Assembly: GCA_041675205.1 (NCBI GenBank)
Contig: JBAYUF010000003.1
Span: 26,172 to 90,171, forward strand
Source of the DNA: Patescibacteria group bacterium
Lineage (GTDB): Bacteria > Patescibacteriota > Patescibacteriia > GWA2-46-9
DNA: 64,000 bases
Direction of reading: 5' to 3'
Made by a program: the position numbers and the translations under genes. Shown here piece after piece: positions 31,200 to 31,946 of the stretch (position 1 is the stretch's first letter; every line of letters starts with the position of its first letter). A model generated the notes under the pieces. That model was not told the DNA's origin. It searched no databases and saw only the letters and a program-made list of their open reading frames with translations.

Positions 31200-31274
31200 G
31201 CCGCGTTCGTCTAATGGTTAGGACACCGCGTTCTCAACGCGGTAATACGGGTTCGATTCCCGTACGCGGTACCA
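31200..31274 (+). tRNA. tRNA-Glu (anticodon CTC)
   Basis: Hand-folded cloverleaf. Acceptor GCCGCGT/ACGCGGT, D-arm GTCT-AATGGTTA-GGAC, anticodon arm CCGCG-TTCTCAA-CGCGG (CTC at 31233-31235), T-arm ACGGG-TTCGATT-CCCGT, discriminator A and encoded CCA. Confidence 0.8.
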
Positions 31275-31278
31275 AAAA

Positions 31279-31312
31279 GTTTCTGACCCATTTTGGGTCG
31301 GAAACTTTTTTT
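31279..31312 (+). terminator. intrinsic terminator after tRNA-Glu
   Basis: 11-bp stem GTTTCTGACCC/GGGTCGGAAAC with ATTTT loop followed by TTTTTTTG. Confidence 0.7.
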
Positions 31313-31320
31313 GTCGCTGA

Positions 31321-31334
31321 AGGGAATCGAACCC
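31321..31334 (-). repeat. inverted 14-nt copy of the tRNA-Glu T-arm (CGGGTTCGATTCCC)
   Basis: GGGAATCGAACCCG on the plus strand is the exact reverse complement of 31248-31261 inside tRNA-Glu; no complete tRNA can be folded around it. Confidence 0.7.
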
Positions 31335-31412
31335 GGGAAAGGGGTCGGGGAAACGGTAGTTTCCCCGCAGCGGAATTATTCAAACCGAGGGGTTTGAAAG
31401 AGGAGCCTCGGC

Positions 31413-31460
31413 GACGAGGGTTCTAGAAGCGAAGCCGAGTCAGACTCGGCGAAGCGACGG
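31413..31460 (+). repeat. short structured repeat family A, copy 1
   Basis: GACGAGGGTTCTAGAAGCGAAGCCGAGTCAGACTCGGCGAAGCG recurs at 31724-31769; it contains a 7-bp hairpin GCCGAGT-CAG-ACTCGGC. Copy 2 has GCCAAGT/ACTTGGC, i.e. compensatory G>A and C>T changes that keep the pairing. Confidence 0.7.
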
Positions 31461-31479
31461 ATTCCCGTACGCGGTACCA
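31460..31479 (+). repeat. perfect 20-bp direct duplication of the tRNA-Glu 3' end (att-like)
   Basis: GATTCCCGTACGCGGTACCA is identical to 31255-31274 (T-loop half, acceptor 3' strand, discriminator and CCA). Confidence 0.85.
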
Positions 31480-31514
31480 ACAAAAATCCGAGCCCATCTG
31501 GGCTGGGATTTTTG
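31480..31514. terminator. terminator-like hairpin with flanking A/T tracts
   Basis: AAAAATCCGAGCCC-ATCT-GGGCTGGGATTTTTGTT. Confidence 0.4.
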
Positions 31515-31597
31515 TTGTGTATGGAGCGACCCCGACCACGACGTGCGTCGGGGTACGCGGCCAGTATCCTGATGTTTATCTAGCGTATCCCGTGAAG

Positions 31598-31640
31598 CCT
31601 TGGCGAAACGGGATAGCGGTAAAGAACTTTCCGCTCGATG
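31598..31640 (+). repeat. short repeat family C, copy 1
   Basis: CTTGGCGAAACGGGATAGCGGTAAAGAACTTTCCGCTCGATGG recurs with a few changes at 31757-31800, there fused directly to family A copy 2. Confidence 0.6.
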
Positions 31641-31723
31641 GGGAAAGTTATTTTGTTCAATCGGCATGTCCTGCCAGCGAGTGAAATGGGAAAGGTCATA
31701 AAGAGGAGTCCGCCCTGACGGAC

Positions 31724-31800
31724 GACGAGGGTTCTAGAAGCGAAGCCAAGTCAGACTTGGCGAAACGGGATAGCGGTAGAAAACGTTCCGTTCGACGCAG
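31724..31800 (+). repeat. repeat family A copy 2 fused to family C copy 2
   Basis: See copies 1 at 31413-31460 and 31598-31640; both copies of family A are preceded by AAAGAGGAG. Confidence 0.6.
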
Positions 31801-31946
31801 ATTTATTATGTTGAGATTAGCACCTGGCTTAAGTTTTAGTATCGTTTTAACTATGTTTCAATGTACTAGTACGATGAATATACTGAGAATTCTATTTTGT
31901 GAATACGCCATTGACAGTCACTATTTTTTAGGCTAAAGAAAGGTGT

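Follow-up and report, generated by a model that had tools for sequence, protein, structure and literature searches.

The window analyzed here is a stretch of 64,000 nucleotides from a Patescibacteria group bacterium (contig JBAYUF010000003.1, positions 26,172 to 90,171, forward strand). Downstream of murF it carries a complete tRNA-Glu(CTC) gene, and the last 20 nt of this tRNA recur perfectly behind the gene (Table 1). The repeated sequence, GATTCCCGTACGCGGTACCA, occurs exactly twice in the window and gave no match in 100 shuffles. An initial annotation of this DNA had reported the repeat and taken it for the left and right attachment sites (attL/attR) left behind by an integrase-borne island. 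Our analysis points to a different identity: the segment 31306-31483 is one complete copy of a conserved structured element, hereafter the module, rather than the remnant of an island. The module comprises a folded core with an inverted copy of the end of its host gene on one side and a direct copy on the other, and the same core is found in more than 100 copies behind other genes.

Each copy of the tRNA end is followed by one terminator-like hairpin (T1 and T2), and the direct repeat D5, which takes in both tRNA end and hairpin (57 nt), has 74% identity between its two stretches. A 14-nt inverted T-arm fragment at 31321-31334, which had been noticed in the initial annotation, is real and sits within a 30-nt inverted repeat (31248-31277 and 31306-31335; 77% complementary) centered on T1. 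T1 is thereby the center of a long palindrome made by the tRNA end and the 5' arm of the module. Among the open reading frames (ORFs) of the window, none with integrase features lies between the two tRNA-end copies, in agreement with the earlier remark that an integrase is absent. ARAGORN and Rfam call nothing at 31306-31483 on either strand, tRNA-Glu being the sole call.

We compared the window with related loci and genome stretches, which are labeled with L-numbers. L007, whose MurF is 90% identical, has the same layout, with ~98% identity from the end of murF to 31479 and a collapse of identity beyond that point. T2 of the window and of L007 differ by compensating changes, and a 20-nt indel corresponds to hairpin h4, which is missing in L007 and bounded by a GCGAAGC repeat. 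In most family members GCGAAGC stands directly before the terminal GACG; in the window it is doubled around h4 (31429-31435 and 31449-31455). As DNA, GCGAAGC forms an unusually stable mini-hairpin. A homologous segment of ~120 nt is present at distant loci (MurF 41-46% identical) that have different tRNA-Glu sequences, where it ends in a copy of the T-loop-to-3'-end part of the locus's own tRNA. The duplicated segment first read as a scar is therefore conserved, both at ~98% in L007 and as homologs in distant lineages, an outcome that the initial annotation had itself named as evidence against its reading. Our covariance model, R1, matches in seven murF-linked loci, always directly 3' of tRNA-Glu(CTC), and the distal copies of the modules behind tRNA-Glu in L021, L025, L026, L028 and L064 follow the local tRNA. 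In L021 the distal copy has a C-to-T change that is compensated by G-to-A in the 5' arm while the tRNA keeps its C; the 5' arm and the distal copy therefore pair, as helix P1. The empty tRNA-Glu site that the initial annotation had suggested seeking exists in L018 and L016, close relatives of the occupied L021, in which an insertion of ~140 nt, made up of 5' arm, core and distal copy, separates yidC from the native tRNA flank. The earlier view of the segment as inserted DNA flanked by a second copy of the tRNA 3' end holds.

To delimit the family, a degenerate 29-nt pattern of the core was scanned over GTDB species genomes, and copy counts refer to the matches listed. At least 120 stretches carry the pattern, nearly all from Patescibacteria (the Candidate Phyla Radiation, CPR) of many classes, and R1 has at least 103 matches in 100 CPR genome stretches. 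By exact-pattern matches alone, and among the matches listed, up to six loci occur in one metagenome-assembled genome. The pattern had no match in 2.9 million viral contigs, a result on which we rejected a phage or plasmid attP. Rfam 15 contains no covariance model matching the core (E ≤ 10 for the window, E ≤ 1 for five loci), and full-text searches, within the library searched, returned no described CPR element of this kind. The module family is apparently undescribed.

Across the phylum the core is ~90 nt long and consists of three hairpins on a junction, in the order 5'-GGGAAAGGGGUCGG, hairpin 1, GYGGAAAUAUU, hairpin 2, AAGGAG, variable hairpin, GACG-3'. In an alignment of the 103 model matches, which is fitted to the model structure and thus somewhat inflates the pairing counts, standard pairs fill 92.8% of pair cells compared with 76.1% after shuffling, and double changes are seen at 33 of 34 pairs. 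Covariation scores 0.328 in this alignment, whereas shuffled alignments give 0.107 and slid ones at most 0.072; none of 500 shuffles reached the observed values. P1 is 79-89% paired in the 103 copies and uses all six pair types. On the gene-sense strand, G.U-type cells outnumber A.C-type cells (108 vs 44). The compensatory changes and the strand asymmetry of G.U pairs are those expected of a structured non-coding RNA. A transfer-messenger RNA (tmRNA) or minus-strand tRNA-like gene was discarded because ARAGORN and Rfam were negative and the G.U pairs favor the plus strand.

The copy in the window has a minimum free energy of -77.4 kcal/mol (z -4.88) and folds as predicted. In this fold P1 is formed by GUCGC (31313-31317) and GGGAAUC (31322-31328) of the 5' arm pairing with X2, and U-A-C-C-A of X2 is left unpaired as a 3' overhang, which would present an acceptor-like end. 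A long-range stem in the window, GTCGCT/AGCGAC, was dropped because it is not kept in other lineages.

The arms follow the host gene. Of 123 copies among the matches listed, 53 lie behind a same-strand tRNA, none behind an opposite-strand tRNA, and 5 directly 5' of a complete tRNA. In 42 of the 53 same-strand copies the terminus matches the end of the upstream tRNA at 14 or more of 17 nt, and these tRNAs represent 15 isotypes. Modules also occur behind tmRNA (L122) and behind protein genes, with rpsI and gyrB recurring among the latter. At the protein genes the duplicate spans the final 16-93 nt with the stop codon, and the core is preceded by an inverted copy. The core always has the orientation of its host gene. 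The flanking direct repeat is 13-93 nt long, with a median of 21.5 nt, and often takes in the host's terminator; the left edge of the duplicate ranges over tRNA nt 49-60, and in 71 of 79 copies the inverted repeat reaches at least 6 nt further left than the direct one. These lengths, and the copying of protein-gene ends, led us to reject a retroviral-type primer-binding site (a 20-nt complement of the tRNA 3' end, minus strand). Copies occur in two settings, either behind one gene with inverted and direct arms or exactly between two tRNA genes. The core of L110, L125 and L163 is armless and lies 2 nt after the upstream tRNA and 0 nt before the next, and the core of L127 and L152 adjoins the 5' end of a tRNA without a gap. 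In L104, L130, L167, L175, L102 and others, the T-loop part of the distal copy is regularly altered (TTCGAAT to TGAGATT, TTCAAAT to TGAAATT), which opposite TTCGAAC of the 5' arm would yield tandem G.A mismatches.

Similar layouts are found around other cores. Elements of ~100-200 nt with unrelated cores stand behind tRNA-Glu in L013 (2009-2190), L060, L041, L049 and L084 as terminator, inverted T-arm (GGAGAATCGAAC), core, T-loop-to-3'-end copy and second terminator; the 3' terminus of the L013 element, AAGGAGCGAAGCGACG, is also present in the window-type module. The principle is thus broader than one core.

Table 1. Features of the tRNA-Glu locus and of the complete, reduced and degenerate module copies, in window coordinates.
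Feature	Position	Strand	Basis or content
Host gene tRNA-Glu(CTC)	31200-31274	+	Complete, CCA encoded; ARAGORN; Rfam tRNA 66.2 bits
X1, copied host-gene end (tRNA nt 57-76)	31255-31274	+	Exact 20-mer, twice in window, 0 expected
T1, terminator-like hairpin of tRNA	31274-31310	no strand	17-nt arms, T-run; same sequence in L007
5' arm, inverted copy of tRNA nt ~50-76	31306-31335	+	Inverted repeat, fold, P1 covariation in 103 copies
Module core	31335-31459	+	R1 match 31312-31483, 118.8 bits, E 2.4e-30
Core, 5' part, in order			GGGAAAGGGGUC; hairpin h1 31346-31367; GCGGAAUUAUU; hairpin h2 31379-31398; AAAGAGGAG 31397-31405
Core, 3' part, in order			Variable region with h3 31406-31419, family A copy 1 31412-31456 and h4 31434-31450; then GCGAAGC-GACG
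X2, distal direct copy of the tRNA end; forms P1's 3' strand	31460-31479	+	Exact repeat; fold
T2, second terminator-like hairpin	31478-31517	no strand	Diverged copy of T1
Reduced copy	31586-31638	+	Hairpin TATCCCGT / ACGGGATA around GAAGCC..UUGGCGAA; also in L007
Degenerate second module copy	31664-31795	+	Alignment; below recognition by R1 at E ≤ 1
Second copy, in order			Decayed core; AAAGAGGAG 31700-31708; hairpin 31709-31722; family A copy 2 31723-31767
Second copy, 3' part			h4' 31745-31761; family C copy 2 31753-31795, in the position of X2

The tRNA-Glu(CTC) gene carries varied insertions in relatives, which bears out its earlier description as a hot spot. In the Uhrbacteria-like L008 (8414-10260), a ~1.8-kb element with ~130-bp inverted repeats at both ends adjoins the tRNA-Glu(CTC) 3' end and encodes a 528-aa large serine recombinase (Resolvase, Recombinase, Zn_ribbon_recom). 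A different small insertion in L033 (6864-6981) and L023 (7174-7300) consists of a conserved ~65-nt segment with two hairpins behind tRNA-Glu, followed by a duplicate covering at least the 3' 53 nt of the tRNA; the displaced copy of L023 is another tRNA-Glu allele and has the flank of that allele. Downstream of tRNA-Glu and its terminator, L010 (7357-7382) has an inverted acceptor/T-arm-like sequence with neither core nor distal copy. Another repeat type follows tRNA-Glu in L090 (6442-6620) and L091 (1757-1930), namely tandem ~115-nt units (TCGCGTTAAACGCGA...GCGACGTTAAACGTCGC...terminator), and in L054 (6348-6470) two different partial tRNA 3' ends (GGGTTCAAATCCCGGTGGCGGTA, CCGGTTCAAATCCGATTGGGGCTGCCA) stand in tandem just after the gene.

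One rival explanation for the window locus is an integration scar or cis-mobilizable element (CIME): an integrase-borne island at the tRNA-Glu 3' end would have been deleted almost wholly, with attL, attR and 186 bp of meaningless sequence left behind. In its favor, the tRNA end is indeed directly repeated (20/20 nt), L008 shows a recombinase-type insertion at the same gene, and L033 and L023 have duplicates of at least 53 nt, the displaced copy in L023 being a foreign allele. However, the interval is ~98% conserved in L007 and still homologous at 41-46% MurF identity, it contains neither an integrase ORF nor a remnant of one, and the same core recurs more than 100 times behind other genes. 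The repeat varies in boundary (tRNA nt 49-60) and in length (13-93 nt), unlike a fixed crossover, an inverted copy of the gene end is always present, and viral contigs gave no match. We regard a scar as highly improbable.

Pairing between the 5' arm and the host gene raises another possibility, a cis-acting RNA switch that serves the host. Two partners would compete for the 5' arm: the genuine gene end, where pairing would block maturation of the tRNA or the 3' end of the mRNA, and X2, which would act as a decoy. The core would be the sensor that chooses between them. A multi-stem junction closed by a variable P1 resembles a riboswitch aptamer, covariation is strong and conservation phylum-wide, and orientation is strictly that of the host gene. 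Moreover, the inverted repeat extends at least 6 nt past the left boundary of the duplicate, so that in 71 of 79 copies the actual gene end is the better partner for the 5' arm. By contrast, the armless form between tRNAs would be unable to switch, a terminator usually lies ahead of the arm, presence is patchy with empty sites in close relatives, and neither a ligand nor a protein partner is known. A switch is therefore doubtful.

Evidence on spread comes from the comparison of copies. The median identity of cores is 0.85 within a genome, where several pairs reach 0.96-0.99, as against 0.77 between genomes. In three within-genome pairs identity extends from GGGAAGGGGTC to ...GACG and the arms are unrelated, a pattern that fits transposition of the core with target-derived arms and equally fits gene conversion limited to the core. 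The distal copy in L084 mismatches its own tRNA and matches the tRNA-Glu allele of L013, and therefore points to horizontal arrival. Since the inverted repeat extends further left than the direct one and centers on the terminator hairpin behind tRNAs, the sequence suggests that the arm was copied from the host by fold-back.

The duplicated ends of protein genes differ from one another 10, 5 and 56 times at the first, second and third codon positions (79% third-position), mostly without amino-acid change (P = 1.4e-8 vs a neutral distal copy). The distal copy is therefore not decaying neutrally, and a target-site duplication followed by neutral decay is ruled out by this test. Either the distal copy has been replaced time and again by functional alleles through recombination with empty-site strains, or it is itself used. 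Coding-type constraint on a spare gene end suggests that host gene and element are functionally entangled.

One way for the distal copy to be used is intron-like excision, in which everything from X1 through the core is removed and X2 becomes the working gene end; a ribozyme, or cellular nucleases with a ligase, would remove this stretch from the RNA, or the duplicates would recombine and remove it from the DNA, and an unprocessed gene would work through X1. X2 does behave as coding sequence in the differences just described, complementarity of the 5' arm to the host runs through the left boundary without a break, as in an internal guide sequence, and the element ends in G (...GACG). Yet the core is only ~90 nt long, with no group I features and no Rfam match, the boundary lacks a conserved U and varies in position, armless copies flanked by tRNAs misfit, and recombination with functional alleles of empty-site strains would explain the synonymous pattern as well. 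We consider excision of this kind unlikely. A group I intron or a known ribozyme was rejected, given the missing Rfam match, the small size and the complete upstream tRNA. In a wider form, an RNA-structured mobile element would use pairing with the end of the host gene for site choice and entry or for intron-like removal. Purifying selection on the distal protein-gene copy fits such an element, and we hold it as a tentative possibility. If true, the gene would function through the distal duplicate, and the element could settle at essential tRNA, tmRNA and housekeeping genes at no cost.

The explanation that we prefer, with a probability of roughly 0.6, is a phylum-wide family of structured modules with host-derived arms that combines a small RNA with non-autonomous spread. 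The description of the module is well supported; its transcription, function and mechanism of insertion are what we infer. The core would be transcribed as a small RNA, whose ends would be set by flanking tRNAs through RNase P and RNase Z or, where flanking tRNAs are missing, by the closing helix. Where the host is a tRNA, this helix would resemble an acceptor minihelix and terminate in the discriminator-CCA of that tRNA. The module would spread as a non-autonomous insertion element whose arms derive from the target; the simplest route would be fold-back with template switching at the terminator of the host gene. Once formed, the arms would supply homology by which the module passes to the same gene of other lineages.

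Several points weigh against this explanation. In the window the strong terminator T1 separates the tRNA from the module, and no promoter was found for the module there. No enzyme could be tied to the module, and neither a circular nor an excised form turned up. Gene conversion, rather than recent transposition, would also explain why cores of one genome are identical, and L013 and L084 have common arms but different cores. The third-position bias of protein-gene duplicates is not predicted by simple copy-and-decay, the template-switch origin of the arms is a model only, and the inflation of the pairing counts mentioned above belongs here too.

Downstream of the complete copy lie two further, incomplete ones, which account for the short repeat families A and C of the initial annotation. 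Both families are real, with first-given coordinates that were 1-5 nt off: family A (31412-31456 and 31723-31767) has 93% identity with none expected, and family C (31596-31638 and 31753-31795) has 88%. The motif described as Shine-Dalgarno-like, AAAGAGGAG, indeed stands upstream of both family A copies, at 31397 and 31700. Copy 1 of family A is a lineage-specific insert in the variable hairpin region of the module. Family C is the flanking repeat of the degenerate second copy, because its copy 2 ends that copy and its copy 1 lies upstream. In the reduced copy, GAAGCC..UUGGCGAA represents the last part of the variable region, with the h4 loop missing, and family C copy 1 (31596-31638) comes next. 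Between the family A copies, hairpin GCCGAGT-CAG-ACTCGGC (31434-31450) has become GCCAAGT-CAG-ACTTGGC (31745-31761), a true double compensatory change as originally reported. It is one case of family-wide covariation in that hairpin (helix 7), and this wider pattern backs the proposal that hairpin structure is under selection.

Beyond these copies begins a locus that the initial annotation had joined to the tRNA-Glu island as an array with an IS110 transposase gene. From 31961 to 32690 there is a chain of ACG-N10-TG spacers, four per 152-nt period and ~17 ten-nt spacers, and a further unit downstream of the adjacent ORF (34183-34286) has hairpins in common with unit 4 (32416-32520) and different spacers. 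The ORF itself (32820-34151, 443 aa) scores 115.6 bits with NCBIfam NF052498 (TIGR_Tas_endo; cut-off 100) and 43.5 bits with the IS110 model NF033542 (cut-off 140); it thus passes the threshold for the Tas protein of a TIGR (tandem interspaced guide RNA) system and fails that for an IS110 transposase. Its best solved relative is 9mty, and its homologs all come from CPR bacteria, also with such arrays. The stem-loop TIGR arrays and CPR TasR clade of Faure et al. 2025 (PMC12045711) match the locus 31961-34286. The TIGR-Tas locus is a separate and already known kind of system, unrelated to the module; we dismissed a functional link because the two do not co-occur in the other loci compared.

A regular-expression search for ACG-N10-TG units found them only from 31970 onward and at 34193, with none in 31275-31930. 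Families A and C were rejected as TIGR units, since no such periodicity occurs before 31970, and a GGCGAAACG motif is the sole link between family C and the first TIGR unit. Directly before that unit, 31889-31945 is AT-rich with TTGACA at 31911-31916, and may be the promoter or leader of the array. A third motif of the type AAAGAAAGG plus hairpin lies at 31936-31961 and resembles AAAGAGGAG plus hairpin of the module copies. At another Tas locus, L002 (4391-6000), a stem-loop array starts ~60 nt past a tRNA-Leu gene and is broken by three terminator-like hairpins (CCCGGG..CCCGGGCTTTTT).

Proximity to Tas invites the idea that the module is a guide RNA. Its arms would be complementary to the two DNA strands of the host gene end, one each, or the 5' arm would be antisense to the RNA, and they would lead a core-bound protein to that end. 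A conserved scaffold with locus-specific arms of at least 13 nt would suit this role, and arms that match opposite strands recall TIGR tandem spacers and bridge RNA loops (PMC12045711), with a TIGR-Tas locus adjacent in the window. But tblastn with 40 Tas homologs found no Tas homolog in ~200 module or murF loci, five Tas loci contain no module (R1 being negative on L002-L004), and the ACG-N10-TG periodicity is missing from 31275-31930. Armless copies exist, and self-targeting of essential genes would need explanation. A guide RNA is accordingly very unlikely.

CPR genomes are tiny and have little non-coding DNA, yet they keep several folded copies of ~90 nt beside their most essential genes. 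If the core is a small RNA, it would be abundant, specific to the phylum and overlooked by current annotation. If the module is mobile, its closing stem is built from inverted and direct copies of the host's end, a mode of insertion that we could not match to a described family. In practice the covariance model annotates regions otherwise misread as tRNA integration scars or pseudo-tRNAs.

Several known systems resemble the module in part. Group I introns of Patescibacteria tRNA genes share with it the phylum, the tRNA association, the cross-boundary complementarity and a 3'-terminal G; the module is less than half their minimal size, has no Rfam Intron_gpI match and stands behind a complete host gene. 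TIGR stem-loop units and IS110 bridge RNAs likewise have a variable palindromic closing stem around conserved RNA elements and two segments that match opposite strands of one DNA site, and a Tas locus is adjacent here. Unlike TIGR units, the module has no periodicity of box C, spacer and box D, and the variable parts of TIGR units are placed differently, the module's lying outside the stem; in other genomes it is unlinked to tas or IS110 genes. The placement of the core exactly between two tRNA genes in several operons recalls tRNA-punctuated small RNAs such as the plant tRNA-small nucleolar RNA dicistrons and archaeal C/D small RNAs at ORF 3' ends (in part refs 64-67 of PMC12045711), and tRNA processing enzymes would therefore release the core. 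The module differs from them in having no box C/D or known small RNA signature and no variable guide in the core, and most of its copies are closed by arms rather than flanked by tRNAs.

Among mobile elements, integration scars and cis-mobilizable elements also have direct repeats of a tRNA, tmRNA or conserved-gene 3' end around an insertion, leave the host gene intact and may have a foreign allele as the distal copy (as in L084 and L023). They differ from the module, which has no integrase and combines a conserved folded core of ~90 nt with a variable repeat and an ever-present inverted copy of the gene end, the same core standing behind many different genes of one genome. Miniature inverted-repeat transposable elements (MITEs) and REP/BIME-type repeats (Correia, ERIC) are, like the module, short, non-coding, structured and multi-copy, located just behind genes and near-identical within a genome. 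The target-site duplication of MITEs is short and fixed, whereas the flanking duplication of the module varies over 13-93 nt, and unlike those of MITEs its terminal inverted repeats are copies of the host gene's end, unrelated from one copy to the next.

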